Of a stretch of 64,000 bases of DNA, positions 46,128-64,000 are shown one piece after another. Position 1 is the first letter of the stretch, and every line of letters begins with the position of its first letter. Made by a program: the position numbers and the translations under genes. The notes beneath the pieces were generated by a model. That model was not told where the DNA came from and searched no databases. It was given only the letters and a program-made list of their open reading frames with translations. Source of the stretch: Deltaproteobacteria bacterium (GTDB lineage Bacteria > Desulfobacterota > Binatia > JACPRU01); assembly GCA_016189835.1 (NCBI GenBank), contig JACPRU010000051.1:944-64943 (forward strand). The letters run 5' to 3'.

Positions 46128-46817
46128 ATGATTCGGCGCGCGGTCCCATGGTCGGTCTTCGCGCTCCTGCTGGCCGCGGCGCCCGCCCGGGCGCAGTTCG
46201 GCACGGCGCCGGGCCAGGGGCCTCGCTCGGACACGCCGGAGGCGCGCCACCGCCACCAGCGCAACGGCGAGAGCCTCGATCAGTGGGTGCGCGTGCTCGC
46301 GTCCGAGGACGCGCAGCGCCGGCTCGAGGTCATGGACGACCTCGGCCGCAGCGCGGATTCACGGGCGATCACCCACCTCTTGAAGGCGCTCGACGATCCC
46401 GACCCGCGGATCCAGGCCAAGGCGATCGACTATCTCGGGCTACGGCGCGCCTCGGACGCCACGCCGGTACTGGTGCGGAAGCTGTTTTGGCGCGGCGCCC
46501 CGCTCGCGATGCGCCAGCACATCCTGAGCGCGCTCGGTAAGATCGGCGATCCGAGCGCCAGCCGCTCGATTCTCGATTTCGTCGCGCAGGAGCAGAGCGC
46601 CGACGTGCGCGGCACCGGCGTTTACGCGCTCGGCGAGATCGGCGACCTGACGATCCGCGACGACTTGAAGCGGCTCGGCGACGGCGAGGGCGACCCTCGG
46701 GTGAAGCTCCTCGTCAAGGAGGCGTTGGCCAAGATCACTCACCTCCCCCGGCCGAAGACCGAGACCTTCGTTCCCCCGTCGCAGAAGGTCGTTCCGCCCG
46801 TGAGGCCCGGCACCTAG
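46128..46817 (+). CDS. HEAT-repeat (PBS-lyase-type) protein with signal peptide
   Basis: ORF 45981..46817(+) has the internal start MIRRAVPWSVFALLLAAAPARAQ and repeated LxDPDPRIQAKAIDYLG / DVRGTGVYALGEIG HEAT-like units. Confidence 0.6.
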   Translation: MIRRAVPWSVFALLLAAAPARAQFGTAPGQGPRSDTPEARHRHQRNGESLDQWVRVLASEDAQRRLEVMDDLGRSADSRAITHLLKALDDPDPRIQAKAIDYLGLRRASDATPVLVRKLFWRGAPLAMRQHILSALGKIGDPSASRSILDFVAQEQSADVRGTGVYALGEIGDLTIRDDLKRLGDGEGDPRVKLLVKEALAKITHLPRPKTETFVPPSQKVVPPVRPGT

Positions 46818-46900
46818 TGTATTGTAACAGCCAAAACGGTAGTGGAGCGTGCGAGCAATCGCGGCCGATGTAGTCCCACGCGGCAGTCCGCGGAGCCGCC

Positions 46901-48364
46901 ATGAACGTCGCTGAATACGCCGCCCGGGACGCGCTGAGTCTCGCCGCGCTCGTGCGCGCCGGAGAGATCAGCGCCACGGACGCAGCCGAGGCCATGCTCG
47001 CCGCGGCCGAACACGTCAACCCCCGCGTCAACGCAATCATCGAGACCTATCCCGGCCGCGCGGCCGCCCCGGGGCCGGGCGTCCATCCCTCCGGCCCGTT
47101 CGCGGGCGTGCCGTTCCTGCTCAAGGATCTGGTGAGTCACGAGGCCGGCCAGCGCTACGAACTCGGTTCGCGCCTCGCCGCCGGGCTCACCGCGCCGCAC
47201 GACACCGAACTGGTGCGTCGCTTTCGCGCCGCCGGCCTCAACATCCTCGGGCGCACGACCACCGCCGAGTTCGGCTTTTCCCCGAGCACCGAGCCGCTGC
47301 TGCACGGGCCGACGCGCAACCCCTGGGACACCGCCCGCACGCCCGGCGGCTCGTCGGGCGGATCGGCCGCCGCGGTCGCGACCGGCATCGTCCCAGTGGC
47401 GCACGCCAACGACGGCGGCGGCTCGAACCGCGTTCCGGCGAGCGCCTGCGGCATCGTCGGCCTGAAGCCGACGCGCGGGCGCACGCCGGTCGGCCCGGAC
47501 TACTCGCAGCTGCTGTCCGGCTGGGGGATCGAGTTCGCCTTCAGCCGCACCATCCGCGACAGTGCCGCGCTGCTCGATGCGGTCGAGGGCCCGGAAACCG
47601 GCGCGTTCTACGCCATCGCTCGGCCGCCGCGGCCCTACCTCGAGGCGATCGCGACGACGCCGCGACCGCTGCGGCTCGCGCTCAACGTGACGCCCTGGTC
47701 GGCGCACGCGCGGGTCGACCCCGTAGTGCGGGACGCGGTCACCGCCGTCGCGCGGGTGCTCGAGGGTCTCGGTCATCGCGTCGAGGAGGCGCGGTTCACG
47801 TTCGACTTCGAGCAGTACCACGCGGCCTGCCGCGTGGTCTGGGCGAGCTTCTGCGCCGCCGGCTGCAGGCAGCTCGCGGCGCTCACCGGCCGGACGATCG
47901 ACGCCGGCACGGTCGAGCCCTGCACGCTGGAGGCTTACGAGCTGGGCTGTCGGCTGAGCGCGGCGGATCTCGCCGCCGCCGATAGCGCAGTCGCGGCTCT
48001 GTGCCGCGCGGCGGGCACGTTCTTCGAGCGGTACGACGTCATGCTCACCCCGACCTGGACCTGCCTGCCGCCGCCGCTCGGCGTGCTCGCGAACAGCCGC
48101 GGCGATCTCACCCTCGACGCCTATCTCCACCTCGTCTTGGGCACGAACACCTTCACCTCGCCGATCAACACGACCGGGCAGCCGGCCATCTCGCTGCCGC
48201 TGTCGCAGAGCCCGCCGGGAGAGGGCCACCCGGCCGGGCTGCCCATCGGTTCCCACTTCATCGGCCGCTGGGGCGACGAGGCGACGCTGCTGCAGCTCGC
48301 GGCTCAGCTCGAGACGGCTCTGCCGTGGCGGGACCGCCGGCCGCCGCTCCACGCCGCTGCCTGA
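46901..48364 (+). CDS. amidase (amidase signature family)
   Basis: The 487-aa product has the AS motif GGSSGGSAAAVATG and Ser-cisSer-Lys triad context. Confidence 0.85.
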   Translation: MNVAEYAARDALSLAALVRAGEISATDAAEAMLAAAEHVNPRVNAIIETYPGRAAAPGPGVHPSGPFAGVPFLLKDLVSHEAGQRYELGSRLAAGLTAPHDTELVRRFRAAGLNILGRTTTAEFGFSPSTEPLLHGPTRNPWDTARTPGGSSGGSAAAVATGIVPVAHANDGGGSNRVPASACGIVGLKPTRGRTPVGPDYSQLLSGWGIEFAFSRTIRDSAALLDAVEGPETGAFYAIARPPRPYLEAIATTPRPLRLALNVTPWSAHARVDPVVRDAVTAVARVLEGLGHRVEEARFTFDFEQYHAACRVVWASFCAAGCRQLAALTGRTIDAGTVEPCTLEAYELGCRLSAADLAAADSAVAALCRAAGTFFERYDVMLTPTWTCLPPPLGVLANSRGDLTLDAYLHLVLGTNTFTSPINTTGQPAISLPLSQSPPGEGHPAGLPIGSHFIGRWGDEATLLQLAAQLETALPWRDRRPPLHAAA

Positions 48365-48519
48365 CGCGCAGCGACAGCCCCGTCCGCGGCCGCGGGGCCG
48401 CCGGCGGGACCAACCGCGACTCCGCGCCATCACCCTCCTGCGTTCGAGCCGGCGCGAGAGCGCCGCGGCCCGGGCCAACCCGCGTGATTCTCGCCGGCGG
48501 CGATCGGCGACTCCCCGCG

Positions 48520-50625
48520 CTACCGCGGCGTCGCGTCGGGCAGCCCGCCGTCCACCGGGATCGTCGCGCCCGTGGTCGGCGTCTGGCGCGTGGCGAAGAA
48601 CAGCACGGCGCGGGCCACGTGCTCGGCCGTGACGCGCGCCTTCAGCAGGTTGCGGCCGCGGTAGTACTCCTCGAGCCCCGCCTCGTCGAGGCCACGGGCG
48701 CGCATCCGTTCGGGGCCGATCGCCGCCCACAAGCCCGAGCGGCGCCCCCCGTGGGAGAAGACGGCATCCGGCGCGACCATGTTCACGCGGACGTCGTGCT
48801 CGGCCAGCTCGAGGCTGGCGATCCGCGCCAGCTGGTGGGCCGCCGCCTTGGTGGCGCTGTAGGCGCCGAACTGCGCGCCGGGAGCGAACACGTTCTTGGT
48901 CGAGACCATCACGATGTCGCCGCCCGTCGCCTGCAGCCGGAAGTGCCGCGCCGCCTCGGCCATCACCAGCAGCGCCCCCTCGACGTTCACCCGCTCGAGC
49001 CGCCGGAACGCCTCGAGGTCGAGGTCCGGGAGCCCCGCCACGTGCGCGAGACCGGCGTTGACCACCACCAGGTCGGCGCCACCCCACTCGAGGGCGACGG
49101 TGCGAAACGCCTCGACGACCGAGCGTGCGTCGGTGACGTCGAGCGGCACACCCAAGACCCGCACGCCGAACGCGGCCCGCAGCTCCGCGACGAGGCCGTC
49201 GAGCGCGACGCCCGGCAGATCCGTCACGGCGACGTGGCTTCCCTCCGCGAGCAGCGCCTGCGCGATGCCCGAGCCGATCGCGCCCGCGGCGCCCGTGACC
49301 AGCGTGACGTGCCCGGGGAGCGGCGGCTCGCCGGCGCCGAGCTTGGCTTGCTGGAAGGTGTGGTACTCCATGTCGAACAGCTCGGCCTCCGGAAGCCCCT
49401 CGTAGACTCCGACCGCCGCCACCGCCGTCTTCACCGCGATCGTGTGCGCCGTGACGTCGCGCGCGATCGTGGCTGCCCCGGCGTCCCCGCCGGCGCAGAG
49501 CGCGCCCAGGCCCGGCGCGAGCACCACGCGCGGCAGCGCGTCGAAACGGTCGAGCCCCTCGGGGATGCGCGCGGCGTGGCGCTCGAGGTAAGCCTGGTAC
49601 GCGACGTCGTAGCGCCCCACGGCCTCGCGCACCTGCGCCGCCAGCCGCAGCGGGTCGTTCCACCGCGGATCGTCGAGCCACAGCGGCAGGGCCTTGGTCC
49701 GGATGAGGTGGTCCGAGGTGAGCGGCGGCGTGAGCGCCAGCTCGCGGCCATGTGCCCCGTCCACGAAGGCGAGCACGTCGGGCGTGACCAGCGGCCGCAC
49801 GACGACCCGCCGGTGCCGCCGGTCGGGATCGCCGGTGGGCCACGCGAGCGCCCCCCGTACGACGGGGGCGATGGCGGCGACGCGCGCCGTCGCGGTCTCG
49901 ACCGCCGTCCGCGCGGACACCGCGAGGCGACCCGCCGCCCGCCGAGTGAGATACGCCTCCGCGCGCGTCACGATCTCGATCATGGTCTCGTACGAGGCCC
50001 GCGCGGTCGGGCCCCAGGTCATGAGGCCGTGGCGCATCCACACCATGCCCCGCCGCCCCGGGTGCGCCTCGTACGCGTCGGCCACGGCCCGCGCGAGCTG
50101 AAAACCCGGCCGCACGTAGCCAAGGACCACGACGTCGTCTCCGAGCGCGTCGCGCGCCACCCGCTCGCCGCCGGCCTGGTTGGTGAGCGCGAGGATCGCG
50201 TCGGCGTGCGTGTGGTCGAGGAACTTCTCGGGCACGAAGGCGTGCGCGAGCGTCTCGAGCGACGGCGTGGCGCTGCGGGCGTCGAAGAGGTGCGTGCGCA
50301 GCTCGTTCGCCATCGCCGCGTCGTCGAGCGCGCTCAGCGCGCGCAGCCGCCGCAGGTAACCGAGGTCGAGCCCCGGATGCCCCTCGGGCTCGATCGCCGC
50401 CAGGTCGTGCCCCGAAGCCTTGACGAAGATCGCCGGGACGGGATCGCCGAGGCGGTTCGTGAACGTCCCCTTGACCGACGTGTTTCCTCCGCCGTGCAGC
50501 ACGAGCCGGTCGTCGGCGCCGAGGAGGCGGCTCGTGTACGTGCGCAGCGCCAGGTCCTCGCCCCAGCGGGGTGCCCAGGCGGCGACGGCGCGCGCCGCGT
50601 CGCCATCCGACCATCGCGTGTCCAT
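48520..50625 (-). CDS. bifunctional class II aldolase / short-chain dehydrogenase (RhaEW-like rhamnulose-1-phosphate aldolase / lactaldehyde dehydrogenase)
   Basis: The 701-aa product has an N-terminal class II aldolase/adducin domain and a C-terminal SDR (TLVTGAAGAIGSGIA...YSATKAA). Confidence 0.8.
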   Translation of the reverse strand: MDTRWSDGDAARAVAAWAPRWGEDLALRTYTSRLLGADDRLVLHGGGNTSVKGTFTNRLGDPVPAIFVKASGHDLAAIEPEGHPGLDLGYLRRLRALSALDDAAMANELRTHLFDARSATPSLETLAHAFVPEKFLDHTHADAILALTNQAGGERVARDALGDDVVVLGYVRPGFQLARAVADAYEAHPGRRGMVWMRHGLMTWGPTARASYETMIEIVTRAEAYLTRRAAGRLAVSARTAVETATARVAAIAPVVRGALAWPTGDPDRRHRRVVVRPLVTPDVLAFVDGAHGRELALTPPLTSDHLIRTKALPLWLDDPRWNDPLRLAAQVREAVGRYDVAYQAYLERHAARIPEGLDRFDALPRVVLAPGLGALCAGGDAGAATIARDVTAHTIAVKTAVAAVGVYEGLPEAELFDMEYHTFQQAKLGAGEPPLPGHVTLVTGAAGAIGSGIAQALLAEGSHVAVTDLPGVALDGLVAELRAAFGVRVLGVPLDVTDARSVVEAFRTVALEWGGADLVVVNAGLAHVAGLPDLDLEAFRRLERVNVEGALLVMAEAARHFRLQATGGDIVMVSTKNVFAPGAQFGAYSATKAAAHQLARIASLELAEHDVRVNMVAPDAVFSHGGRRSGLWAAIGPERMRARGLDEAGLEEYYRGRNLLKARVTAEHVARAVLFFATRQTPTTGATIPVDGGLPDATPR

Positions 50626-50725
50626 GTGCCGCGCCCGTCAGCCCGCGCCGAGCGCCCCCAGCCGCTGACGGGCGTTCTCGTCGGGCCCTGCGATCATCCG
50701 GCCCCCCGGCCCCGGACCCGCTCTC

Positions 50726-51628
50726 CTAGACGGCAACGCGGACGTCCCGCTTTTCGTGGCGGAGGGTCTGGTAGAGGTCGTGGGCCTGCTCGGGCTTCAT
50801 GAGCTGGTGCACGACCGCGCCGACCGCCCGGATCATGGCGGCGGGCGCCTCGGACTGGAAGATGTTGCGCCCCATGTCGACGCCCGCCGCACCTTCCGAC
50901 ACCGCGCGGTGGGCCATGGCGAGCGCCTCCAACTCGGGGAGCTTCTTGCCGCCGGCCATCACGATCGGCACCGGGCACGATGCGGTCACCGTCTCGAAGC
51001 CCTCGGGCACGTAGTACGTCTTCACGAAGTGCGCGCCCAGCTCCGCGCAGATCCGGCACGCCAGGCGGAAGTAGCGTGCGTCGCGCGTCATGTTCTTGCC
51101 GACCGCGGTCACGCCGAGCGTCGGGATGCCGGCGCGGATGCCGGCATCCACCAGCCGCGTCAGGTTGTGGATCGACTGCGTCTCGAACTCGCCGCCGACG
51201 AACACCTGCACGGCCATGGCCGACACGTCGAGCCGCACCGCGTCCTCGACGTCGACCGCCAGCTGCTCGTTGGACAGCTCCTTGAGAATGCTCGGGCCGC
51301 CGCTCGCCCGCAGCACGACGCCGCGGCCGAACGAGGGCGGAATGTTAGCGCGCAAGATGCCGCGCGTCAGCATCAGCGCGTTCGCCCACGGCAGCAGCGG
51401 GACGATGTCTACGTCGACGCGCTCGAGGCCCGCGGTGGGTCCCTGGAAGTAACCGTGGTCGATGGCCAGCATCACGGTGCGGCCGGAGGCGGGATCGAAG
51501 ATGTGCGCGAGGCGGTGTTGCATGCCCCAGTCGAGCGCGCCCGATCCCTTCAGGAAGAACGGCTCGCGACGCTCGGGAACGCCCACGTGGAAGTTCCTGG
51601 TGTCCTTCACGTCCTCGAGATCGGCCAC
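50726..51628 (-). CDS. class I aldolase, DhnA/LsrF (DeoC/LacD) family
   Basis: The 300-aa product contains [10 protein letters not shown] and a Schiff-base lysine context (FVKT). Confidence 0.75.
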
Positions 51629-51883: not shown

Positions 51884-52408
51884 ATGGACGCAAGCCTGGA
51901 AACCCTGAGCGCCCGCGTGCAGCGTCTCGAGGACCTGGAGGCGATTCGCAGCACGTGGCGCGACTACTGCATGAGACTCGACTCCGGCGACTGGCCGGCG
52001 CTCGGCGACGTCTTCACGAAAGACGCCGTGCTCGAGATGGACGGCCTCGATCCGATCAGCCCCGGCCTGGACGGCCGATACCGCGGCCGTGACTCGATCA
52101 TCGACGACTTCTACGTTCGGGCCGTCGGCGCCGTGGTGGGAGGCGCCGAGGGGCCCTACTCCACCGGTCACATCAGCACCAACATGCAGGTCGAGCTGCG
52201 TGGCGACGAAGCGACCACGCTCGCCTACTTCTTCGAGATCGTCGCCGACGACCGCGTGTTGATCGGGACCTACCAGCACCGCTTCCGCAGGGAGGCGGAC
52301 CGCTGGCGTTTCGCCTTCCTGCGCATCTCGGTGCGCTACCGCGCGCGCCTGGAGGGGACCGACTTCGGCGGTCAACCACTCACCGCGGTCCTGGCGAAGC
52401 CGGTGTAG
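51884..52408 (+). CDS. SnoaL-like / NTF2-fold protein
   Basis: ORF 51848..52408(+). The start is at MDASLETLSARVQRLEDLEAIRSTWRDY (ggagga SD upstream), which is typical of the SnoaL_4/DUF4440 fold. Confidence 0.65.
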   Translation: MDASLETLSARVQRLEDLEAIRSTWRDYCMRLDSGDWPALGDVFTKDAVLEMDGLDPISPGLDGRYRGRDSIIDDFYVRAVGAVVGGAEGPYSTGHISTNMQVELRGDEATTLAYFFEIVADDRVLIGTYQHRFRREADRWRFAFLRISVRYRARLEGTDFGGQPLTAVLAKPV

Positions 52409-53342
52409 GCAAGCGCTGCGCCGTCCGCCTCCCGCCGTCCGGACGAGCGAGAAGCTCCGCCCCACACGCCGCCACGATGAAGACGGCGCCGACGAACTCC
52501 CGGCGGCCGAACGGCTCCTGCGTCAACAGGCTCGCCGAGGCGAGACCGATGACGACCTCGAGCATGAGCAGTACCGTCACCCGACCGGGATCGAGCCGGC
52601 TGGCGCCGAACATCGTCAGCCAGAGGACCAGCGGCATCCACAGCAGTCCGAAGGCGAGCAGCCAAGTCGCGCCGCGCCACGAGACTTGCGCCGCCGGCAG
52701 CGTCCACGGGCGGCCGCCCGGCACGAGACTGAAGAGCAAGAACAGCAGGCCCAGAAACAGGAACTGCACGAACACCTTGTCGAACTCCGACGCGTGCTGC
52801 GGGACTCGCTGCAAAGCCACCATCGACAGTCCGCACAGCAAGCCGGAGACGAGCCCCATCCAGTCCCCGGCCACCCGTGGGACCGGGGCACCGCTGCCAG
52901 CGCCGAACACGACGAACATCCCAGCCAGCCCCAGAGCGATCGTGACGATTCGGGCGGCGGTGATGCGGTCGCCAAGAAAGACCCGCGCCAGCAGCGTGCT
53001 CCATACCGGCGCGAGATAGAAGAGTAGAATGACACGAGCGACGTAGCCGCGCAGCAGCGCTTCGGCATAGAGCGCGATGCACGCGGCCATGAGAAGGCCC
53101 GCCTGCACGAGTGGCCATCCGCCGGCGATGATGGGGTGCCGCCGGATCACCCCAAACGGGAACAGGACCAGCAACGGGATGGCGAAGCCGGCGGCCGTCG
53201 CCCAGGGACCGCCGAGCCCCGCCTCGTTCAGATGACGGAGCGGAATCCACAGCGTGCCCCAGAACAGAGTCGACGCCAGGATCGCGACACTGGGCGCCAG
53301 CGTCGCCGCTCGCGAGCCGTGAGGCTCACCGCTCCGGTCCAT
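52380..53342 (-). CDS. EamA/DMT-family transporter
   Basis: The 10-TM protein has duplicated EamA halves. The start was set at M22 (MDRSG...). Confidence 0.75.
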   Translation of the reverse strand: MDRSGEPHGSRAATLAPSVAILASTLFWGTLWIPLRHLNEAGLGGPWATAAGFAIPLLVLFPFGVIRRHPIIAGGWPLVQAGLLMAACIALYAEALLRGYVARVILLFYLAPVWSTLLARVFLGDRITAARIVTIALGLAGMFVVFGAGSGAPVPRVAGDWMGLVSGLLCGLSMVALQRVPQHASEFDKVFVQFLFLGLLFLLFSLVPGGRPWTLPAAQVSWRGATWLLAFGLLWMPLVLWLTMFGASRLDPGRVTVLLMLEVVIGLASASLLTQEPFGRREFVGAVFIVAACGAELLARPDGGRRTAQRLPTPASPGPR

Positions 53343-53444
53343 CAAACCGCCGGCCGGGCCTCGAGGCTGACGGCCTGCCGAACTTCGCAGCCTGCCGCAG
53401 CCCAACGAAAGAAACCTGCCCTGGACATGGACGGCGGCCGAGGC

Positions 53445-54248
53445 CTAGTCGCGGCGCGCGATGAAGCGTCCCTGCGCGACTTCGCCGGCATGCGCCAATT
53501 CTCGAATGAACGCGAACTCGCCAGCCACCGTCTGCAGCATATCCATGTCGTAGCCGAGAATGTCGAGTGCGTCGAAGGTCAGCTGCATGTCCACCATGCT
53601 GAGATACAGGTCGATGTGGGCCGGGAAACGTCCGGTGTCGTCCGCCGCCACGACGGTGCAGCCGTTCTCTTCGAGCAGTCGGCAGTAGCCGGGGATGTCC
53701 TGCAGATTGGCGAATTTCATGCAGGTCAGGAAGCGCTCCGCCTCCGCATCGGAGAGCCCCGCCGGGCCCTCGACCCAATCGGTGAAGGCGATCGTGCCGC
53801 CGGGCTTCACCACGCGAGCGGCCTCGGCGATGAGCTTGGGCTTGTCCGTGACGTAGCACCAGGCGTCCTTACCCCAGACGAAGTCCGCGCTGCCCGTGGC
53901 GAGGCCGCTATGGCAGACGTCGCCGAGGACGAAGCGGATGCGGTCATGGACGCCTTCCTCCTGACAGCGCCGGCGGCCGCGATCGACCACCGTCTCGGTC
54001 GCATCGACGCCGGTCATCGAGGCCACGTTGCGGAAGCGGACGAGGAAGCGCATGCCCGCGCCGTTGCAGCAGCAGAGGTCGACGCCGCGCATCCCCGCAC
54101 CGATGCCCGCGCGCTCGGCCAGATCCATCGACGACTTGAATCCGCCGATGTGGATCTGCTGGCCCATGAGGAGCTCCCACAGGTCTCCTTCCTGGCCGCC
54201 ATACACGGCGGTGACCTCTTTCAGGCCGACGTTGGCGATGGCCTTCAT
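53445..54248 (-). CDS. class I SAM-dependent methyltransferase
   Basis: The 267-aa product has the motif I region VDLCCCNGAGMRFLV and the post-I acidic residue. It lies 168 nt downstream of the PlsAR-like gene on the same strand. Confidence 0.75.
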   Translation of the reverse strand: MKAIANVGLKEVTAVYGGQEGDLWELLMGQQIHIGGFKSSMDLAERAGIGAGMRGVDLCCCNGAGMRFLVRFRNVASMTGVDATETVVDRGRRRCQEEGVHDRIRFVLGDVCHSGLATGSADFVWGKDAWCYVTDKPKLIAEAARVVKPGGTIAFTDWVEGPAGLSDAEAERFLTCMKFANLQDIPGYCRLLEENGCTVVAADDTGRFPAHIDLYLSMVDMQLTFDALDILGYDMDMLQTVAGEFAFIRELAHAGEVAQGRFIARRD

Positions 54249-54416
54249 GCTCTCCCTCCTCGAGCGCCCGGGAAAAACGGCCGAGTGGCGTCGCGCTCTG
54301 GCTGCTGGTGCCGTTCGCGGAGCTGCTTACCGGTCTCGCCGATTCGGCGGCGACGGGGCGCGGCGCCCCGATCGGGCTCGCGGTCCGGGCGGCGACGGCC
54401 GGCGCCCGTGCCCCGG

Positions 54417-57400
54417 CTAGGGAACGGCGGGCGCCGGCACCTCCCGGTACGGGTCCGCGGCGCGGCCGGCGTTGCGGTGCAGCCGGTAGCAAAAGCTGCG
54501 CACGCGGCGCTCGTCGAGCGGCGTGCCGTCGTCGTAGTAGAAGAAGAACGGGATGTCCTTGCGGTGGCGCAGCAGCCCCTCGGTCACGAGGCTGTTGTCG
54601 CAGCCCCAGCAGGCGACCATCGCGACGCCGTCGTAGAGCCCGGTGTCCCAGGCTTGCAGCGCCGAGCCGATCTCGATCGTGGTGCCGCCGATGGTGTCGG
54701 GATCGAGCAGCTCCTCGGCCTTGGCGATCGCTTCCTCGACCGCCGGCTGCGGCAGCCACGGGTGCAAGACTCGCACTTCACGGTAGTAGCGCCCGCGCAG
54801 TTCCGCTTGCTGCGACACCATGAGATCCGCGACCGCCTTCGGGGTCGCCCGGCCGAACTGCAGGTGAGGATGGCGCCGGGCCAGATATTCGAAGAAATTC
54901 GTCAGCGGATCGAGCACCAGCCGCAAGCCCTGCTCGCTCATGCGCAGCAGCAGGCCGCCGTTGGCGAGGTCGTTGCCCTTGGTCATGGTTTCGCCGGCGA
55001 CGAACACGCGGCGGAACGACTTCGCACCCTGCCACGCCGCCTCCATGTCCGCGAAGCGTCGCGATGCTTCCTGCAAGACCGCGCCGATTTCGTCGGCGCG
55101 CGCCGCGATCTCGGGTTGCGCGTCGGCCGGATCGGCGAGCGGCCGCTCGATGACCGCGAGCAGGGCGGCGATCGACTCCTCGTAGAGCGCGCGCGACGCG
55201 CCGGCGCGCGGCTCGACCGGCAAGTGGTAGACGTACAACTGGCGCAGGATCTCGACGGCCGACAGGCCCGCCCAGATGAACAGCGACATCGGCGGATCGG
55301 CGCCGAAACGCATGCCCTGCTCGCTGACGAGATCGTACAGACCCATCTTGTCGAGCGAGATCTTGTCCTTGACGTCGAACACGCCGGCCCGGCACATCTG
55401 ACCGTTGAACGCCAGCAGGTGGGTCTCCTTGGTCGGCGGGTTTTTCTCGAGGTAGTCGCGGAACGCTCCCCAGATCAGCTGGTAGCCCATGCACTCCTTG
55501 CCCGAGCAATCCGCCTTGCCGCAGGTGCGCGTGCTCTCCGTATGGGCGGGCGCCGCCACGGCATCGTAGCCGTACGCGCGGTAGACGGCGGCGAAGGCCG
55601 CGCCGATGTTGTCGGCCATGCTGAGCGTGACGTACCGCGCGTCGGGGTCGAGAAAGCCGCCCGGCTTGCCGCGGCCGGGGTCGAGATAGGAAATCGTGCG
55701 CGCGTTCTCGGGCAGCGCCCGCGCGCCGCCCTCGGCGATGAACTGGCGCACCGACTGCAGGAACGCCTGGACGCGCGTGACGAAGCCGGCCTCGCCGCCG
55801 TGCCCGTCGCTCTCGAGAATGGTGTGCGGGTAGCCCTCCATCAGGGCCTGGAAGATCTGCTCGGTGAACGACGACGGCCCGCAGCCGAAGGACGCGAGCA
55901 GCACCGGGAACACGTCGCGCAGCTCGCGGGCGTGCAACGCCGCGCGCAGCGAGCGGTTGTCGTCGCCCCAGTAGGCGCGGTGCAGACGCGGGATCTTCTC
56001 GTTGACCGGGAAGCAGTCGACCGGGATCGCCATCGCGCCGTTGCGCCGCAGGATGTACGGGATCCCGGCGTTGATCGCCGGATCGCAGATCACGTGGATG
56101 TGGCCGACCAGCAGCACGGCCGGCACCGCCTGGCGGCGCGCGTAATCGAGCGCCTCGCGCCCGATGCGCTCGAGCCCGTCCTCGAAGCGCGCCTGGGCGG
56201 CGGCGGCGCGCGCGATGGCCTGCTCCATGAGTGCCGGATCGGCGCCAAGCTCGGCGGCGACACGCTGCATCTCGGCGAGCAGCCCGGGGTGGGCGAGCCC
56301 GTCGCGAAACGACAACCGCGGGCGCACCACGCGCACGTCCTTGCCGCGCCCGAGCAGCGACTTTTCGACCATCTCGGGCATGGCCTGCTCGGCGACGCAG
56401 GTTTGCCCGCCCTTGCCCTTGGTGTCGGCAACCCGAAAGATCTTCGGGAACAACAGCAGATCGACGTCGGCATCGCAGACCGCGAGCGCGATCTTCACCG
56501 GGCCGCACGAATCGAAGCTGTGGCAGAGCTGCTCGCCGGCCGCGAGCGATCCGCCGTCGGAACGCAGCAGCCGGACCGCGAAGCCGAGCTCGTCGGCGAA
56601 GGTCGCGAGCCACGGCACGTGGGGCCCCACGGCGCTGATCGCGGGGATCGCGACCACCGGCGCTCCCGGTCGCGGGCGCACGAAACTCTCGAGCAGGGCG
56701 TCGCGCTGCTCGAAGGGGTTCGGGGCCTCCTTGGCCAGCTTCGGCTGGTTCTTGGTGGGCAGCTCGAACTTCGGGCAGGCGCCACCCGAGAAGGCCTTGT
56801 GCCGGACGTCGCGGACCTGGATGGTCGTGCGCTCGATCGGGCAGAGGGTCTGGCACTGGGGGTCGCGACAGCGAAACTCCGAGCGCTCGGTGATGTCGGC
56901 GGCAAGGAGCCCCGCGAGGTCGAGCCGCGGAGCCGCCAGCAGCGCGGCCGCGCCGAGCTGTTTCCCGGCACACAGGCCGATGCCCCAGGCGCCCATCGCG
57001 CCGGGGTTCGGCGGCACCACGATCTCACGGCCGGTGACCGCCGCGAGCGTCCAGGCGAGCGACGGGTTGGCCGCGGGCTTGCCCTGGAAGAACACCCGCT
57101 CGCCGAGCGTCCGCTGCCCCATGACGCGGTTGATGTAATTGTGGATCACCGAATACTGGAAACCCGCGAAGATGTCCTCCCGGGTATAGCCCTCCTTGAT
57201 GGCGAGCGCGGCGGCGTCGGCGACGAACACCGTGCACATCTGGCCGAGATCCGGCGGGCGCTGCGCCCTCGAGGCCAGCGCGACGAACTCGTCGATGTCG
57301 CGGACGTCGTAGAGATTGGCCTGCTCCTCGAGGAACGAGCCGGTGCCCGCGCTGCAGGCCTTGTTCATGTCGCTCTCGACGATCCGCCCGCCCTGCACGC

Positions 57401-58727
57401 GGATGTACTTCGCATCCTGGCCGCCGATCTCGATGACCGACAGGTCCTCGCCGCGGCGCGCGTCGCAGCGCGTGGCGGCGGTCGCGTGCGCGACGATCTC
57501 GTTCAGCACGATGACGTGCTCGCTGTCGGGGTAGACGGCGCGCACCAGCGTCGCCACGGCCTCGCGGCCCGATCCCGTCACGCCGATGGCGCGCACGTCG
57601 GCGTCGGTCGTGTCGAGGATCGCGCGCACCAGGCGCCGCGCCGCATCGACCGGGTTGCCGCGCGTGCGGTCGTAGACGTCGAGCACGACCTCACCGGTTT
57701 CGACCGAGGTCAGTACCGCCTTGGCGCCGGTCGAGCCGAGGTCGAGCCCGAGCACGCTCGGCCGCGCGGCGGCCCCCGCGGGAACCGCCGCCGTCGGCAT
57801 GATCGTGACGCGCTCGCGCCAGCCGCTCGCCGGGCGCAGGGTCTCGAAACGGTCGCCGCCGGCGCGCACGAGCTCGGCGGGATCGGCCGGCAGCGGCGCG
57901 CGCGCCTCACCGCGAGCCTGCAACGCGGCGATGGCCGCAGCGCCCACCGCCTCGAAGCACTCGGCATGCGGCGGCATCTTGACCGGCGCGCCGAGCAGAT
58001 CCTCGAACGACCGCCGGAACGAAGCGATGCGCGCCGGGCCGCCGATCAGATAGACCGGCCCGTCGACGTGGTTGCGCGCCGCCAGCGCATAGGTGTTGCG
58101 CGCCACCGAACTGAAATAGCCCTTGAAGAGCTCGCCGGTCGGCTTACCCTGGTTGGCGAAGTGGGTCATCTCGGTCTTGGCGAACACCGAGCAGCGCGCC
58201 GTGATCGGGATGCCCTCGCCGGCCGCGAGCGCCTTGTCGTCGGCTTCGGCGACGCCGAGGCCGAAGCGATCGACGATCTTCTGGATGTTCTCGCCCGTGC
58301 CCGACGAGCACTTGTCGTTTTCGAGATACTGGTAGACGTACTTCGGGGCCGCGCCGCCGCGCCCGGCCACATCCCGCTTGCGGCTCAGCACACCGTAGCC
58401 GCGCGCACCGATGCTCACCAGATTGAGCGCGTCCTCGAGCTCGGGCGACAGCTCGAGCGCCGCTTCCTGGCACGAGTCCTCCGGCAGAACCAGCACCGGA
58501 TCGCGGAGTTCGTCGGCGTGGACCCCGGTCGCGGCGAGCACCGCGCACGAGGCGATCCCCTGCTCGCGGTACCATGCTCGAAAGAGTCCGATGGGATCGC
58601 CGTCGTGCGGCTGAGAGCGCGTGTGCTCGATCACGAGCGCGCCGTCCGCGCCCACTTGCGCGGCCACGAAGCGCGCCGATGCCTTGCCCAAATCGCAGCC
58701 CGCGATGCGCAATCCGTCGGCCTTCAC
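54417..58727 (-). CDS. fused HgdC-like double ATPase activase (BcrAD/BadFG) + HgdAB-like (2-hydroxyacyl-CoA dehydratase D-component) protein; PlsA/PlsR ('Ger')-type
   Basis: ORF 54417..58889(-). The start was recomputed to a GTG (ggagaagg SD) giving (M)[20 protein letters not shown]. The product has two BadF/BcrA-type ATPase modules (…[14 protein letters not shown]…) followed by HGD-D-like and DUF2229-like regions with conserved Cys. It is ~1436 aa. Confidence 0.75.
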
Positions 58728-58964
58728 GGTTCGACCTTCTCCGCTTCTACCCAGATATGCCCCGGCGCTTTCGCCGGTCAAGCATCTGCCCGGCACGCCG
58801 AGCCGCTGCTCGACGCTCTCCAGCCCGGTCGCCCGCGCACCGAGCACCCTGCTCCCGTCCCGGCCCTGCTTCATCGGCCGGCCCGACACGTCGACGATCG
58901 GCCGTTCAGCGATCGTCAGCCGGCATGCGATTCGCCTCGGCCACCGCGGCCGACCGGGCGGCGC

Positions 58965-60146
58965 TCACGCGCCGTCCCTCAACAGCTCCTCGGCGATGAT
59001 CAACTTGCGGACCTCGGTCGTGCCGGCGCCGATCTCGAGGAGCTTGATCGTCCGGTACAATCGGTTGATCTCGGATTCCCAGATGTAGCCGATGCCACCG
59101 TGGATCTGCAGAGCGTGGTCGAGCACCGCGTTGAGGCCGTTCGCGGCGTACAGGACGGTCGCCGCCGTCAGCTTGTGGATCGCGCCGCGACCGCCGCCGC
59201 CGATCTCCAGCTGGTTGCAGGCGGCGAGGCAGCGGAAGTTGAGCGCGCGCATCGCTTCGATCAGCGTGTACATGTCGGCGAGGCGCGACTGCACCATCTG
59301 GAAGCTCGCGATCGGTTTGCCGAACTGCTCGCGGGTCTTGGCATGCTCGAGCGCCAGCGCGAGCGCGCGCTCGGCGATGCCGACGCCGAGCGGCGCCACC
59401 ATCGCCCGCTCGAGATCGAGACCGCTCATCACCACGCGGTGGCCCTGGTTCTCCAGGCCGATCCGGTTGCGCGCCGGCACGCGACATTCGTCGAATACCA
59501 GCTCCCCGGTCGGGCTGCCGCGGAAGCCCATCTTCTCGAGCTTCTGCGCCACCGCGAACCCCGGGGTGTCGGTCTCGACGGCGAAGGCCGAGATGCCGTG
59601 CGCGCCCGCCGCCAGATCGGTCTTGGCGTAGACCAGCGCCAGGTCGGCCACCGGGCCGTTGGTGATGAACAGCTTCCGTCCGTTCAGCACGTAATCGTCG
59701 CCGTCGCGGCGCGCCGTCGTGCGCATGCTGCCGAGCGCGTCGGAGCCCGCCCCCGGCTCGGTCAGGCCGAGACAGCCGATCGACGAGCCGGTGCAGAGCC
59801 CGGGCACGAAGCGCCGGCGCTGCTCGTCGTCGCCGTTGCGCAGGATGTTGTTCAGGCAGAGGTTCTCGTGCGCGACCCACGACATCGCCAGCGCCGGATT
59901 CCAGCGCGCGAACGCCTGCGCGACGAGGCCGCTGGAGAACAGGTCGAGGCCCGCGCCGCCGAATTCGGCCGGAGCCGTGATGCCGAGATATCCGGCCTCG
60001 CCGAGCGCGCGGAACTCCACGTCCGGCCACCACTCCTCTGCGTCCATGCGCGCCGCCAGCGGATACAGGCGCTCGCGCGCGTAGCGGTCCGCGGCGTCGA
60101 GAATTTCTCGCTGCTCCCCGCCGAGATCGAAGCAAACTGGATTCAC
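58965..60146 (-). CDS. acyl-CoA dehydrogenase
   Basis: The 393-aa product has the ACAD N/M/C domains (GCLGLTEPGAGSD, catalytic-base region YIWESEINRLYR). Confidence 0.9.
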   Translation of the reverse strand: MNPVCFDLGGEQREILDAADRYARERLYPLAARMDAEEWWPDVEFRALGEAGYLGITAPAEFGGAGLDLFSSGLVAQAFARWNPALAMSWVAHENLCLNNILRNGDDEQRRRFVPGLCTGSSIGCLGLTEPGAGSDALGSMRTTARRDGDDYVLNGRKLFITNGPVADLALVYAKTDLAAGAHGISAFAVETDTPGFAVAQKLEKMGFRGSPTGELVFDECRVPARNRIGLENQGHRVVMSGLDLERAMVAPLGVGIAERALALALEHAKTREQFGKPIASFQMVQSRLADMYTLIEAMRALNFRCLAACNQLEIGGGGRGAIHKLTAATVLYAANGLNAVLDHALQIHGGIGYIWESEINRLYRTIKLLEIGAGTTEVRKLIIAEELLRDGA

Positions 60147-60273
60147 CGAACCTCCCCGCGACGGTGACGACGCCTCGATGCATCCCTAAACAACCCGCAG
60201 ACCGCGAAGTCAAGCAACGTCTCCGGATCGGCCGCGGCCGTTTGACTCGCGCGGCGAAATGTAGTGAATCCCG

Positions 60274-60373: not shown

Positions 60374-61033
60374 GTGCGCGAGATCCTCGCCGCGGCGCGG
60401 ACGGTCTTCTCCGAGCGCGGCTACGAGGCTGCCGCCATCACCGAGATCGCCCGCCGCGCGGGGGTCGTCGAGGGCACGATCTACAAGCATTTCGACAGCA
60501 AGCGCGATCTCCTCCATCGGGTCGTGCGCGACTTCTACGAGGCGCTGATCGACGACGTCGACGCCGGAATCCGCGGCATTCGCGGTGCCGCCAACCGCCT
60601 GCGCTTCCTCATCGGCCGCCACCTCCAGGCGTTCAGCGCCGACCGCGGCCTGTGCCGGCTGCTGATCCGCGAGATCCGGCCCGACGGAGAGCTGTACGAT
60701 TCCTCGATCGAGAACCTCGGCCGCCGTTACACCCGTGCCGCTTCCCAGGCGCTGCAGGACGGAATCGACAGCGGCGAGCTCCGCGACGACATCGAGCCGG
60801 CGATGGTTCGGCACATGATCTACGGAGCGGTGGAGCACGTGGTGTGGCGCTTCGTGTTTCGCGGCGGCCGCCTCGACGTCGATCGCGTCGCCGACGAGCT
60901 CACGCGCGCCGTCTTGCACGGCATCGTCCCGCAGGCGTCCCCGTCCGGCGCGGTCGAGCGTCTCGAGGCGCGCATCGCCGGGCTCGAGCGCCGCTTCGGC
61001 CGCGGCCGGCCGCGCCGCACGGAGCGCGCGTGA
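60374..61033 (+). CDS. TetR/AcrR-family transcriptional regulator
   Basis: ORF 60164..61033(+) has the HTH ITEIARRAGVVEGTIYKHFDSKRDLL. The start is uncertain and was set at the GTG giving MREILAAART. Its stop overlaps the BC start (GTGA). Confidence 0.7.
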   Translation: MREILAAARTVFSERGYEAAAITEIARRAGVVEGTIYKHFDSKRDLLHRVVRDFYEALIDDVDAGIRGIRGAANRLRFLIGRHLQAFSADRGLCRLLIREIRPDGELYDSSIENLGRRYTRAASQALQDGIDSGELRDDIEPAMVRHMIYGAVEHVVWRFVFRGGRLDVDRVADELTRAVLHGIVPQASPSGAVERLEARIAGLERRFGRGRPRRTERA

Positions 61034-62490
61034 AGAAGGTGCTGATCGCCAACCGCGGCGAGATCGCGGTGCGCATCCTGCGTACGCTGCGCACGATGGG
61101 TCTGGAGAGCGTGGTGGTCCATCACGCGGCCGACGCGGCGAGCCTGGCCGTGCGCGAGGCCGACGAGGCCCGCGAGATCGCCGCGGCGACGCCGGTCGCC
61201 GCCTACCTCGACGTCGCGGCGATCCTCGCTGCGGCGCGCTCGAGCGGCGCCGACGCGATCCATCCCGGCTACGGGTTCCTCGCCGAGAACGCCGACTTCG
61301 CCGAGGCGGTGGAGCGCGCGGGGCTGACGTTCGTCGGCCCCCCGCCGCGGGTCATCCGCCTGCTCGGCGACAAGATCCACGCCCGCGAGCGCGTCGCCCG
61401 GGCCGGCTTCCCGATCACGCCGTCGGCGACCGATTCGAGCGACCGGACCGCGTTCCTGCGCGCCGCCCGGGAGGTCGGCTTCCCGCTGCTCGTCAAGGCC
61501 GCCGCGGGCGGCGGCGGCCGCGGCATGCGCATCGTGCGCTCGCCGGACGCGCTCGAGGCCGAGCTCGAGACCGCACGCCGCGAGGCCGAGCGCAGCTTCC
61601 AGGACGGCCGCGTCTACGTCGAGCGTTACGTCGAGCGGCCGCGCCACATCGAGGTACAGATCCTATCCGACGCGCACGGCAACCACCTCCACCTCGGCGA
61701 GCGCGAGTGCTCGGTGCAGCGCCGCTTCCAGAAGATCATCGAGGAGGCGCCCGCGCCCGTGCTGACCGCCGCGCAGCGCCGTCGCCTCTGCGAGGCGGCG
61801 GTCGGCATCGCGCGCGCCGTCGGGTACCGCAACGCCGGCACCGTGGAATTCCTCTTCGCGCCCTCCGGGGAGTTCTACTTCCTCGAGGTCAACACCCGGC
61901 TGCAGGTCGAGCATCCGGTGACCGAGATGGTGACCGGCATCGACCTGGTCGCCGAGCAGCTGCGCGCCGCCATGGGCGAGCCGCTGTCGCTGCGCCAGGA
62001 AGACGTGGTCGCGCGCGGCCATGCGCTGGAAGTCCGCCTGTGCGCCGAGGACCCCGGCAGCGGCCACACGCCGACCACCGGCGAGGTGGCGCTGCTGCGC
62101 GCGCCCGGCGGCCCCGGCGTGCGCTTCGACGGCGGGCTGTGCGAGGGACAGGCGGTGACGACGTCGTTCGATTCGATGCTCGCCAAGCTGATCGCCCACG
62201 GCGCCGACCGCGCGCAGGCGATCGCCCGCATGCGCCAGGCGCTGCGCGATCTGGTGCTGCTCGGGGTCGCGCACAACGGCGCCTATCTCGAGCGCGTGCT
62301 CGGGCACCCCGCGTTCGCGAGCGCCGACCTGCACACCCATTTTCTCGAGCAGCACGCCGCCGACCTCGCGCTGCCCGGCGCCGCCGGCCCGGACCTGGTC
62401 ACGCTGCTCGCCGCCGCGGTGCTGGTCGACCCGAGCGCCGGCGCCGACGTTCCCGAACCCTACGCGTCGATGGGCGAGTGGAGGAACTGA
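61030..62490 (+). CDS. biotin carboxylase subunit of an acyl-CoA carboxylase (no fused BCCP)
   Basis: ORF 60652..62490(+). The GTG start gives (M)KKVLIANRGEIAVRILRTLR, with an ATP-grasp domain (EVNTRLQVEHPVTE). Confidence 0.85.
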   Translation: MKKVLIANRGEIAVRILRTLRTMGLESVVVHHAADAASLAVREADEAREIAAATPVAAYLDVAAILAAARSSGADAIHPGYGFLAENADFAEAVERAGLTFVGPPPRVIRLLGDKIHARERVARAGFPITPSATDSSDRTAFLRAAREVGFPLLVKAAAGGGGRGMRIVRSPDALEAELETARREAERSFQDGRVYVERYVERPRHIEVQILSDAHGNHLHLGERECSVQRRFQKIIEEAPAPVLTAAQRRRLCEAAVGIARAVGYRNAGTVEFLFAPSGEFYFLEVNTRLQVEHPVTEMVTGIDLVAEQLRAAMGEPLSLRQEDVVARGHALEVRLCAEDPGSGHTPTTGEVALLRAPGGPGVRFDGGLCEGQAVTTSFDSMLAKLIAHGADRAQAIARMRQALRDLVLLGVAHNGAYLERVLGHPAFASADLHTHFLEQHAADLALPGAAGPDLVTLLAAAVLVDPSAGADVPEPYASMGEWRN

Positions 62491-62494
62491 GCCC

Positions 62495-62995
62495 ATGAGG
62501 CGCATCCTGCGGGTCGCCGACCAGCGCCACGAGGTCCTCGTGCTGCCGAGCCGCGAAGGCCGCCGGCTGCTGCTCGGCCGGGACGTCCATCCGGCGTCGC
62601 TGCGCGCGCTCGGCGGCGGCGAGTACCGGCTGGAGGTCGACGGCATGGCGCACCGCGCCTGGATCGCCGTGCGTGGCGACGCCATCCACGTACACGTCGG
62701 CGGGCGCTCCTGGACCGTCGAGTGCGTCGACGAACTGGCCGAGACCGCCGCCGCGTCCGGCGGCGCGTCCGACACCGCCGAGGCGCCGATGCCCGGCACG
62801 GTGGTCCGCGTGATGGTCGAGACCGGCCACGCCGTGAGGCGGGGCCAGACGCTGGTCGTCATCGAGAGCATGAAGATGGAGACGGCGATCGTCGCCTGGC
62901 GCGACGGCGTCGTCGCCGCCGTCCACCGGCCGCTCGGCTCGACGTTCGATCGCCGGGCGCCGCTCGTCTCGCTCGAGCCCGAGCCTTCGTCCTGA
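62495..62995 (+). CDS. biotin carboxyl carrier (biotinyl-domain) protein
   Basis: The 166-aa product has a C-terminal biotinyl domain with the attachment motif ESMKME. Confidence 0.8.
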   Translation: MRRILRVADQRHEVLVLPSREGRRLLLGRDVHPASLRALGGGEYRLEVDGMAHRAWIAVRGDAIHVHVGGRSWTVECVDELAETAAASGGASDTAEAPMPGTVVRVMVETGHAVRRGQTLVVIESMKMETAIVAWRDGVVAAVHRPLGSTFDRRAPLVSLEPEPSS

Positions 62996-63007: not shown

Positions 63008-64000
63008 ATGCGCCGCATCCAGTCCAACGTCGACACCCGCTCCGAGACCTTCCTCGAGAACCAGCGGCACAACCGGCGGCTGATCGACGAATTGCGCCGC
63101 CGTCAGGAAGAGGTGCGGTTTCGCCGGCCGCAGCGCGACATCGATCGGCTGACGCGCCAGAAGAAGCTCCTGGTCCGCGACCGCCTGTCGCTGCTGCTCG
63201 ATCCCGGCACGCCGTTCCTCGAGCTGTCCACGCTGGCCGCCAACATGGCCTACGACGGCGAGGTGCCGGGCGCCGGTCAAGTGACCGGCATCGGCATGGT
63301 CGCGGGCCGCGAGGTGGTGATCCGCGCCGACGACGCCTCGGTCAAGGGCGGCGCCTGGTACCCGCTGTCGGTCAAGAAGATCGTCCGCGCCCTCGACATC
63401 GCCATCGAGAACCGCCTGCCGGTCGTGCACATCTGCGACAGTGCCGGCGGCTTCCTGCCGCTGCAGGCCGACCTGTTCGCCGACCGCTATTACGCGGGGC
63501 GGATGTTCCGCAACCAGTGCGCGCTGTCGAAGATGGGCGTGCCGCAGGTGGCGATCGTCGTCGGCCATTGCACGGCGGGCGGCGCGTACATTCCCGCCCT
63601 CAGCGAATACTCCGTGATCGTCCGCGGCACGGGCGCCATCTTCCTCGGCGGGCCGCCGCTGGTGAAGGCGGCGACCGGCGAGGTGGTGACCGCCGACGAG
63701 CTCGGCGGCTGCGACCTGCACACCCAGGTGAGCGGTACGGCGGACTACCCCGCCGCCTCGGAGCCGGAAGCGATCGCCATCGCCCGCGACGTCGTCGCGC
63801 AGCTCCGCCGCCCCACCAAGACCGACATCGACACCGCGGATGCCGAGCCGCCGGCCTACGATCCCGAGGAGCTCTACGGGATCGTTCCGAGAGAGGTCAA
63901 AGTGCAGTTCGACATGCGGGAGATCATCGCGCGCCTGGTCGACGGCAGCCGCTTTCACGAGTACCAGCCGGCCTACGGCACCACGCTGGTCTGCGGCTTC
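63008..64000 (+). CDS. acyl-CoA carboxylase carboxyltransferase (beta) subunit (methylcrotonyl/geranyl/propionyl-CoA carboxylase type); runs off window end
   Basis: My own translation from the atg at 63008 gives MRRIQSNVDTRSETFLENQRHNRRLIDELRRRQEEV...ICDSAGGFLPLQ...GHCTAGGAYIPALSEY, an MCC-beta/PCC-beta N-terminal CT domain. No stop occurs within the window. Confidence 0.85.
   Translation, partial: MRRIQSNVDTRSETFLENQRHNRRLIDELRRRQEEVRFRRPQRDIDRLTRQKKLLVRDRLSLLLDPGTPFLELSTLAANMAYDGEVPGAGQVTGIGMVAGREVVIRADDASVKGGAWYPLSVKKIVRALDIAIENRLPVVHICDSAGGFLPLQADLFADRYYAGRMFRNQCALSKMGVPQVAIVVGHCTAGGAYIPALSEYSVIVRGTGAIFLGGPPLVKAATGEVVTADELGGCDLHTQVSGTADYPAASEPEAIAIARDVVAQLRRPTKTDIDTADAEPPAYDPEELYGIVPREVKVQFDMREIIARLVDGSRFHEYQPAYGTTLVCGF

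Follow-up and report, generated by a model that had tools for sequence, protein, structure and literature searches.

Two described enzyme types stand closest to the gene analyzed here: PlsA/PlsR, which makes plasmalogens (PMC9702350, PMC12838417), and Ger, which makes alkyl ethers and has a BB-D layout with variable small H/D pieces (PMC13159169). Anaerobic plasmalogen synthesis through the pls ortholog has been reported for Listeria (PMC9702350), a TetR gene has been reported upstream of pls in E. faecalis (PMC9702350), and fused plsA genes measure 4248-4920 bp (PMC12838417). In E. coli, a single gene is sufficient for Ger or PlsA function (PMC13159169, PMC12838417), and Ger as a lone gene works there only under anaerobic conditions (PMC13159169, PMC11150832). 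The field states that Ger and PlsA are indistinguishable by sequence (PMC13274423), and proteins with two PF01869 domains plus PF09989 have already been named Ger homologs (bioRxiv 10.64898/2026.06.23.733905). Here we examine a relative of these enzymes, a 1436-aa fused activase-reductase encoded on a 64,000-nucleotide stretch of DNA (hereafter the window; contig JACPRU010000051.1 of assembly GCA_016189835.1, Deltaproteobacteria bacterium). The enzyme type itself is known; what is new is that the protein belongs to a large, uncharacterized clade (clade X) of the BBD or PlsA/Ger-type family, in which the first ATPase module has degenerated in a clade-specific manner.

A complete gene for a double activase fused to two reductase modules

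The gene occupies 54417-58727 on the minus strand and is complete. Translation starts at a GTG at 58727, which a GGAGAAGG ribosome-binding site precedes by 8 nt; the stop-to-stop open reading frame (ORF) reaches 58889, but the start of the homologs coincides with residue 1 of the 1436-aa protein. The product is 100% identical to the GenBank entry "hypothetical protein HYY35_07825" from a Deltaproteobacteria metagenome-assembled genome (MAG). With more than 1900 full-length homologs, it is not a chance ORF: of the candidates that were scored, 1945 proteins reached E ≤ 1e-10, and the best 120 are 52-100% identical. An earlier note on this DNA had read the minus-strand gene as a double activase followed by HgdAB-like domains, and Pfam, full-length activase matches and an AlphaFold2 (AF2) fold all agree with that description. 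On the opposite strand, a 2343-aa ORF without a Pfam match (53136-60167, plus strand) runs antisense across the 1436-aa gene and both of its immediate neighbors, a methyltransferase and an acyl-CoA dehydrogenase (ACAD) gene; it is a spurious stop-free frame of the kind usual in DNA of 70% GC, and the GC content of the window is ∼70%.

The N-terminal half carries BcrAD_BadFG in two stretches (Pfam, whole protein, E = 7e-41). ATPase module 1 (57903-58715, minus strand, aa ∼5-275) is HgdC-like and retains the Fe-S ligands C140 and C179, and ATPase module 2 (56958-57755, minus strand, aa ∼325-590) is a canonical HgdC-like activase with ligands C458 and C498. Each module aligns over its full length with HgdC, HadI, DCCP-R and MbdQ/P, and by sequence module 1 is closest to DCCP-R. 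To evaluate the conservation of motifs and cysteines, 86 clade members were aligned with three outgroups, and a Listeria PlsA homolog was compared. In ATPases of the ASKHA superfamily, the nucleotide is bound by phosphate-1 and phosphate-2 motifs and not by Walker motifs. Both are invariant in module 2 ("DLGSTGAK" and "EIGGQDAK" in 86/86 clade members) and degenerate in module 1, where "CDLGKAS" stands in place of DxGSTxxK and "SxGARGY" in place of E/D-IGGQDAK (K15 in 81, S105 in 78 and G110 in 85 of the 86). The Listeria PlsA homolog has canonical nucleotide motifs in both of its activase modules. Judging by these motifs, module 1 has probably lost its ATPase activity, and one half of the double activase would then be a pseudo-ATPase. 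The earlier note had looked to Fe-S cysteines and nucleotide-binding (there "Walker") motifs in both modules; the cysteines are indeed found in both, but the motifs only in module 2. Such a half-degenerate double activase is a natural experiment on the number of ATP sites that electron injection needs.

At the junction of the activase and reductase halves lies a four-cysteine linker (56775-56870, minus strand; C620, C625, C629 and C651), conserved in 99-100% of the clade and with all four cysteines also in the Listeria PlsA homolog; it is probably an extra metal or Fe-S site between the two halves. It is followed by reductase module 1 (55728-56660, minus strand, aa ∼690-1000; C741, C777, C949), made up of DUF2229 and an HGD-D-like end, and by reductase module 2 (54468-55640, minus strand, aa ∼1030-1420; C1079, C1112, C1376), the PlsR equivalent, with an HgdAB-like fold. 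DUF2229 (PF09989) was matched at aa 694-905 (Pfam; E = 8e-24 with the whole protein, E = 2e-24 with the C-terminal half). Pfam HGD-D (PF06050) gave one nonsignificant match (E = 0.077, ∼45 residues, aa ∼948-992), reductase module 2 had no Pfam match, and a sequence search of the PDB at E ≤ 1 returned activases only and no solved dehydratase or reductase catalytic subunit. Among the domains on which the earlier note had relied, BcrAD_BadFG and DUF2229 are thus significant, but HGD-D remains below threshold.

The AF2 model of the C-terminal 797 aa (pLDDT 84.6, pTM 0.86) consists of two Rossmann-like modules. The best Foldseek match of this half is DCCP (7yyl, 6eno), and HadC, HadB and BzdNO were closest in the comparison of C-terminal folds, so that the HgdAB-like nature of the C-terminal half is established by its predicted fold and not by a hidden Markov model. 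The ligand cysteines (C140/C179, C458/C498, C741/C777/C949 and C1079/C1112/C1376) are kept in 99-100% of the clade, and all of them occur in the Listeria PlsA homolog. One bridging activase cluster together with one cluster per catalytic module would be expected to give this pattern, and by analogy with HgdC and HadBC the sites would each hold a [4Fe-4S] cluster.

Placement in the PlsA/PlsR-Ger family, as the earlier note had proposed, is borne out by the four-module layout, by colinearity with the L. monocytogenes PlsA homolog (∼1300 residues, 25% identity, E = 1e-69) and by the presence of all cluster cysteines. The PlsA-type sequences of Listeria and Paraclostridium used for comparison were obtained by tblastn of PLSDB, where they occur in mislabeled chromosomes. 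In size and layout, the 1436-aa protein matches fused plsA (PMC12838417) and Ger (PMC13159169).

Proposed reaction

The explanation that we consider best, though with no more than middling confidence, is that the protein would be an autonomous, ATP-driven radical reductase of the PlsA/Ger type that converts glycerolipid esters to ethers. Its ether-lipid part is the best inference available and is drawn solely from distant homology. For cofactors, electron path and substrate, we infer the following steps from work on HgdC/HadI, HadBC, benzoyl-CoA reductase (BCR) and PlsA/Ger. The enzyme, a member of the BCR/HAD superfamily, would be self-sufficient, oxygen sensitive and ATP driven. Its two HgdC-like modules would form an intramolecular pseudo-dimer with one bridging [4Fe-4S] cluster held by C140/C179 and C458/C498, from which a low-potential electron would be driven on by ATP hydrolysis, in clade X probably at module 2 alone. 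The electron would then pass via the four-cysteine linker site to the two three-cysteine [4Fe-4S] sites of the HgdAB-like modules, where an ester carbonyl would undergo ketyl-type reduction. The most likely substrate would be the sn-1 acyl ester of membrane glycerophospholipids, and the product an alkyl or an alk-1-enyl ether, two outcomes that sequence cannot separate.

A stand-alone gene among non-conserved neighbors

Around the gene, the window holds the neighbors that the earlier note had described: an ACAD, a class I S-adenosylmethionine (SAM) methyltransferase, an EamA transporter, a divergent TetR regulator and a split carboxylase, none of which belongs to the known plsAR context. The same note had joined the first of these into an ACAD-dehydratase-methyltransferase operon, an arrangement that comparison with other genomes does not support. 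Our context set comprised 80 genome loci of homologs at 46-89% identity (81 loci with the window; 1.37 Mb of fetched sequence, of which ∼1 Mb is flank). ACAD, methyltransferase, EamA, TetR and carboxylase did not adjoin any of the 80 homologs by tblastn, and similarity to two 89% homologs and one 74% homolog starts and ends at the gene borders (tblastx). At the closest locus (L001), the gene is flanked on both sides by genes on the opposite strand. All-against-all clustering of flanking ORFs yielded no cluster present in more than 12 of the 81 loci. Within the window, intergenic gaps measure 237 nt between the ACAD and the 1436-aa gene and 168 nt between the latter and the methyltransferase gene; a consensus scan identified no promoters and no convincing terminators around the genes, and hairpins after the ACAD and the 1436-aa gene fold no better than shuffled sequence (z = +0.5 and +1.1). 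The 1436-aa gene is a stand-alone gene that moves alone, and the proposed operon with its neighbors is not supported. Its solitary movement fits the single-gene sufficiency of Ger and PlsA in E. coli (PMC13159169, PMC12838417). For annotation, this means that the neighboring ACAD, methyltransferase and transporter should not be taken to form a pathway with it.

A Pfam census of the 142 immediate neighbors at these loci found regulators to be commonest (AraC plus DJ-1, 10; TetR, 9; MarR, 5), followed by short-chain dehydrogenases/reductases (SDR; 7), MFS transporters (5), amine-oxidase-like proteins (5) and two each of enoyl-CoA hydratase (ECH), ACAD and thiolase; it contained no methyltransferase and no EamA. 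The TetR gene of the window had no homolog at the tblastn threshold in clade X loci, including those with a TetR gene beside the big gene. Two sub-clade patterns were observed in passing. In a Myxococcota sub-clade (L063, L069, L070, L073 and L075), the clade X gene adjoins a block of thiolase-like, acyl-CoA ligase and ACAD genes, which runs in the same direction as the gene at some loci and converges on it at others. Upstream of the clade X gene, L066, L068, L070, L075 and L079 encode a phytoene-desaturase-like flavoprotein.

The ACAD (58965-60146, minus strand) lies outside the unit and resembles isovaleryl-CoA dehydrogenase (IVD): IVD accounts for each of its five highest-ranking PDB matches (E = 3e-100 to 1.5e-89), with other ACAD classes at ∼2e-77. 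Divergent from it are a FadR/YsiA-like TetR gene (plus strand, from 60164, with a true start probably at ∼60344), a biotin carboxylase gene (∼61030-62490, plus strand), a BT-BCCP gene (62495-62995, plus strand; BT_MCC_alpha and biotinyl domain) and an MCC-beta-type carboxyltransferase gene (plus strand, from 63008) that runs past the window end at 64000. The best matches of the carboxyltransferase include MCC-beta and AccD1 chains (∼1e-97 to 5e-93), and classical PCC-beta follows at 1e-50 or weaker. On these similarities, IVD, divergent TetR and MCC-type carboxylase together look like a liu-type leucine/isovalerate catabolic cluster; the enoyl-CoA hydratase and HMG-CoA lyase of such a cluster were not seen within the window. 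The alpha subunit of the carboxylase is unusually split. The TetR protein was considered as a pls-type regulator and rejected, being FadR/YsiA-like and heading the carboxylase genes.

These identities bear on the second function offered by the earlier note, a true (R)-2-hydroxyacyl-CoA-type dehydratase for which the upstream ACAD would be the partner, in the manner of HadBC/HadI and AcdB. The closeness of the C-terminal fold to HadC, HadB and BzdNO, and an ACAD on the same strand 237 nt upstream, agree with it. However, this ACAD resembles IVD and belongs with the MCC-type carboxylase divergent from it, it does not stand beside the 89% and 74% homologs, and neither a CoA-transferase nor a 2-hydroxyacid dehydrogenase was seen nearby. 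The PDB sequence matches are to activases only, with no catalytic subunit among them, and Pfam HGD-D stays below threshold, while DUF2229 and the fused four-module layout typify PlsA/Ger and not classical dehydratases. Lacking partner genes and a catalytic-subunit match, this function is very improbable.

A methyltransferase-EamA pair and its link to HGD-D operons

Downstream of the 1436-aa gene lie the SDMT-like class I SAM methyltransferase gene (53445-54248, minus strand) and, after it, the EamA transporter gene (52380-53405, minus strand); an ORF at 52372-53250 was discarded as the EamA gene because it is in the wrong frame. The minus-strand run of genes ends at a convergent SnoaL-like gene beyond EamA. 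The SAM-motif region of the methyltransferase is unusual ("DLCCCNGAGM"). More than 560 close relatives of the methyltransferase occur in metagenomes, and it is at least 66% identical in all 80 methyltransferase loci examined. Paired with EamA, it was found in 17 metagenome loci among the closest ones with enough flank (within L083-L111, L131, L137, L141 and L150), in varying orientation and with EamA identity down to 41%. No BBD gene was present at any of these 17 loci, among them L086, for which 4.7 kb of sequence upstream was available. The methyltransferase-EamA pair is an independent module that is conserved without the 1436-aa gene.

In 23 of the 80 metagenome methyltransferase loci, a member of the same orthogroup (66-72% identical to the methyltransferase of the window) stands directly upstream of an HGD-D gene (L113, L115, L116, L119, L122, L123, L125, L127, L135, L136, L138, L139, L144, L146-L149, L153-L156, L159 and L162). 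At L125 (5926-11255), the order by Pfam is methyltransferase, three HGD-D genes and a single BcrAD_BadFG activase, and three HGD-D genes and an activase follow the methyltransferase in all 11 loci long enough to show them. A DUF3034 gene often precedes the methyltransferase, and an AIR-synthase-like gene (AIRS) sometimes follows the activase. This operon spans a GC content of 47-67%, with subunit identities down to 44-58%; as far as we found, there is no published description of a DUF3034-methyltransferase-three HGD-D-activase-AIRS operon. The HGD-D proteins have no sequence similarity to the catalytic half of the 1436-aa protein, and only the activase matches. When the neighbor sets of the big-gene loci and the methyltransferase loci were compared, they shared one weak item, a second, generic methyltransferase near L053. 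One methyltransferase orthogroup thus adjoins HAD-superfamily enzymes in two different architectures, which is probably more than coincidence.

It might therefore be supposed that the 1436-aa enzyme is a partner of methyltransferase and EamA, with a small molecule made or consumed by the radical reductase or dehydratase, then methylated and finally transported. Four genes on one strand, in a run closed by the convergent SnoaL gene, would suit such a partnership, as would the place of the same orthogroup at the head of three HGD-D genes and an activase elsewhere and the conservation of that operon over so wide a GC range. HAD-superfamily genes are moreover rare in genomes, which makes two independent adjacencies to one methyltransferase orthogroup improbable by chance. 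Set against this are the absence of either gene from all 80 clade X loci, the absence of a BBD gene from all 17 other methyltransferase-EamA loci, the dissimilarity of the operon's HGD-D proteins to the C-terminal half of the 1436-aa protein (the activase alone matches) and the 168-nt gap between the two genes. We regard the partnership as unlikely. The same operons suggest a broader version, because the methyltransferase orthogroup is built into them: clade X would then comprise fused radical reductases with a half-degenerate activase that are not ether-lipid synthases and that serve a small-molecule pathway with an SDMT-like methyltransferase and EamA. To this version, too, we assign a low probability.

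Extent of clade X and weight of the ether-lipid reading

When the catalytic half was compared with 1.8 billion representatives, clade X proved to be discrete, with representatives at 36-50% identity and then a drop to ≤31%. Its members come almost exclusively from MAGs, in mostly low-oxygen settings: Rhodospirillaceae MAGs from oxygen minimum zones (OMZ), the Black Sea at 150 m, groundwater "Beta-" and "Deltaproteobacteria", and sediments. Further hosts are Binatia, Myxococcota, Actinomycetes, Gemmatimonadota and many Desulfobacterales. Low-oxygen habitats suit an O2-labile enzyme. Two 89%-identical proteins (L001 and L056) belong to MAGs that are labeled Betaproteobacteria and come from similar groundwater samples, and they have wholly different flanks; such identity despite differing flanks and labels reflects either recent gene transfer or mislabeled bins.

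Paralogs occur both within and beside the clade. Rhodospirillaceae loci L003, L005, L007 and L008 carry tandem clade X duplicates whose copies are ∼70% identical, and at L042 (5028-9455) a clade X gene stands in tandem with a 1475-aa paralog that is 31% identical and represents a second family, itself large. L042-type paralogs are annotated as "CoA activase" in Myxococcales and Nitrospirae.

Branched tetraethers and non-isoprenoid alkyl glycerol ethers serve widely as biomarkers in environmental and paleoclimate studies, although most of the organisms that produce them have not been identified. If clade X makes ether bonds, the candidate producers would grow by Binatia, Myxococcota, OMZ Rhodospirillaceae and groundwater Proteobacteria.

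Several results weigh against an ether-lipid product. Identity to the Listeria PlsA-type comparison sequence is just 25%, and because BBD subfamilies are mutually only 21-31% identical, alignment with it demonstrates a common architecture but not a common substrate. Two functional ATP sites were not found, since only the motifs of module 2 are canonical across clade X and the acidic and Ser/Thr residues of the nucleotide site are gone from module 1. A close paralog of an active Ger, D. alkenivorans Ger2, yielded no ether lipids on expression (PMC11150832), and family membership is therefore no guarantee of ether-lipid activity. Lipid-biosynthesis genes did not appear as conserved neighbors among the 142 in the census. 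Three homolog lists, obtained with the 1436-aa protein, a Desulfobacterales clade X member and the L042 paralog as queries, consisted almost wholly of MAG proteins; they contained no characterized Ger or PlsA, and none of their entries came from a named organism in culture whose lipid profile is known. Ten distant full-length representatives from the C-terminal-half search, looked up by cluster, likewise led to no cultured organism. Lastly, the methyltransferase orthogroup forms part of classical HGD-D/activase operons at other loci, so its adjacency here might not be accidental.

Clade X might instead be a paralogous BBD branch that acts on something other than glycerolipids, applying the same ketyl chemistry to another ester, a thioester or a carbonyl. 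The gap in identity that sets the clade apart, its coexistence with the 1475-aa paralog, the tandem duplicates in Rhodospirillaceae and the degenerate module 1 throughout would all be consistent with such a branch. Ger2 offers a precedent for a paralog that is inactive or has another function (PMC11150832), and genes for SDR, ECH, ACAD, thiolase-like, acyl-CoA ligase and luciferase-like proteins recur near sub-clades of clade X. However, the clade as a whole has no conserved neighbor (the best clusters reach 12 of 81 loci), and the ACAD-like matches, in 7 of 80 loci or about one per 150 kb of flank, were judged to be genome background, a judgment that is an estimate and not a computed control. 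Nor did the literature found describe any BBD-type protein with a demonstrated function beyond ether-lipid formation. A different substrate is thus possible but somewhat doubtful, and the conversion of glycerolipid esters to ethers is retained as the preferred reading.

Other features of the window

At 50726-51628 (minus strand), a gene matches LsrF, the 3-hydroxy-5-phosphonooxypentane-2,4-dione thiolase of autoinducer-2 (AI-2) processing (NCBIfam, 478 bits, well above the cut-off of 297); it has no further recognized lsr gene beside it. Two further long ORFs without a Pfam match, at 46814-50614 (minus strand) and 48001-50802 (plus strand), are probably spurious frames as well; the former, of 1266 aa, is overlapped by an amidase gene (46901-48364, plus strand).

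Comparison with known systems

PlsA/PlsR (C. perfringens CPE1194/1195 and the fused forms of E. faecalis, L. cremoris, B. longum and Listeria) resembles clade X in length (∼1400-1480 aa) and in its sequence of two activases, DUF2229 and a second reductase, and often has a regulator next door, as clade X does. The Listeria protein shares the activase, linker and 3+3 reductase cysteines with the 1436-aa protein. The two differ in sequence (25% identity) and in ATPase module 1, whose motifs are degenerate here and canonical in Listeria. The hosts differ also, PlsA/PlsR being found in Firmicutes and Actinobacteria and the gene described here in a high-GC MAG labeled Deltaproteobacteria.

With Ger (T. 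maritima Tmari_0479; D. alkenivorans SHJ90043), the likeness follows from the published description of a common BB-D core (PMC13159169). A single gene is enough for Ger, as it would be for clade X, and hosts of both are anaerobic or from low-oxygen settings, with Desulfobacterales relatives present in clade X. Ger shows several small PF06050 (HGD-D) matches, whereas the 1436-aa protein has one faint match. Ger2 (D. alkenivorans SHK01260) is a full-length paralog of the same family and is cited here only as a precedent for a paralog negative for ether lipids.

HadBC/HadI, HgdAB/HgdC, BzdNOPQ and MbdONQP have the activase fold and the cluster cysteines in common with the 1436-aa protein and presumably also ATP-coupled injection of a low-potential electron. 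HadBC/HgdAB and the class I BCRs consist of separate PF06050-positive subunits, act on CoA esters and have CoA-transferase or dehydrogenase partners; the 1436-aa protein, in contrast, has everything fused, contains DUF2229 and has no such partners in sight nearby. NCBIfam models of BCR subunits score far below their cut-offs, and there is no aromatic-degradation cluster around the gene. The layout of 2-hydroxyacyl-CoA dehydratases, with separate alpha and beta PF06050 subunits and an activator of ∼260 aa, also differs from the fused 1436-aa protein. DCCP, which the C-terminal half matches best in structure, forms homodimers that carry an [8Fe-9S] cluster, whereas here 3+3 cysteines are distributed over two non-identical modules.

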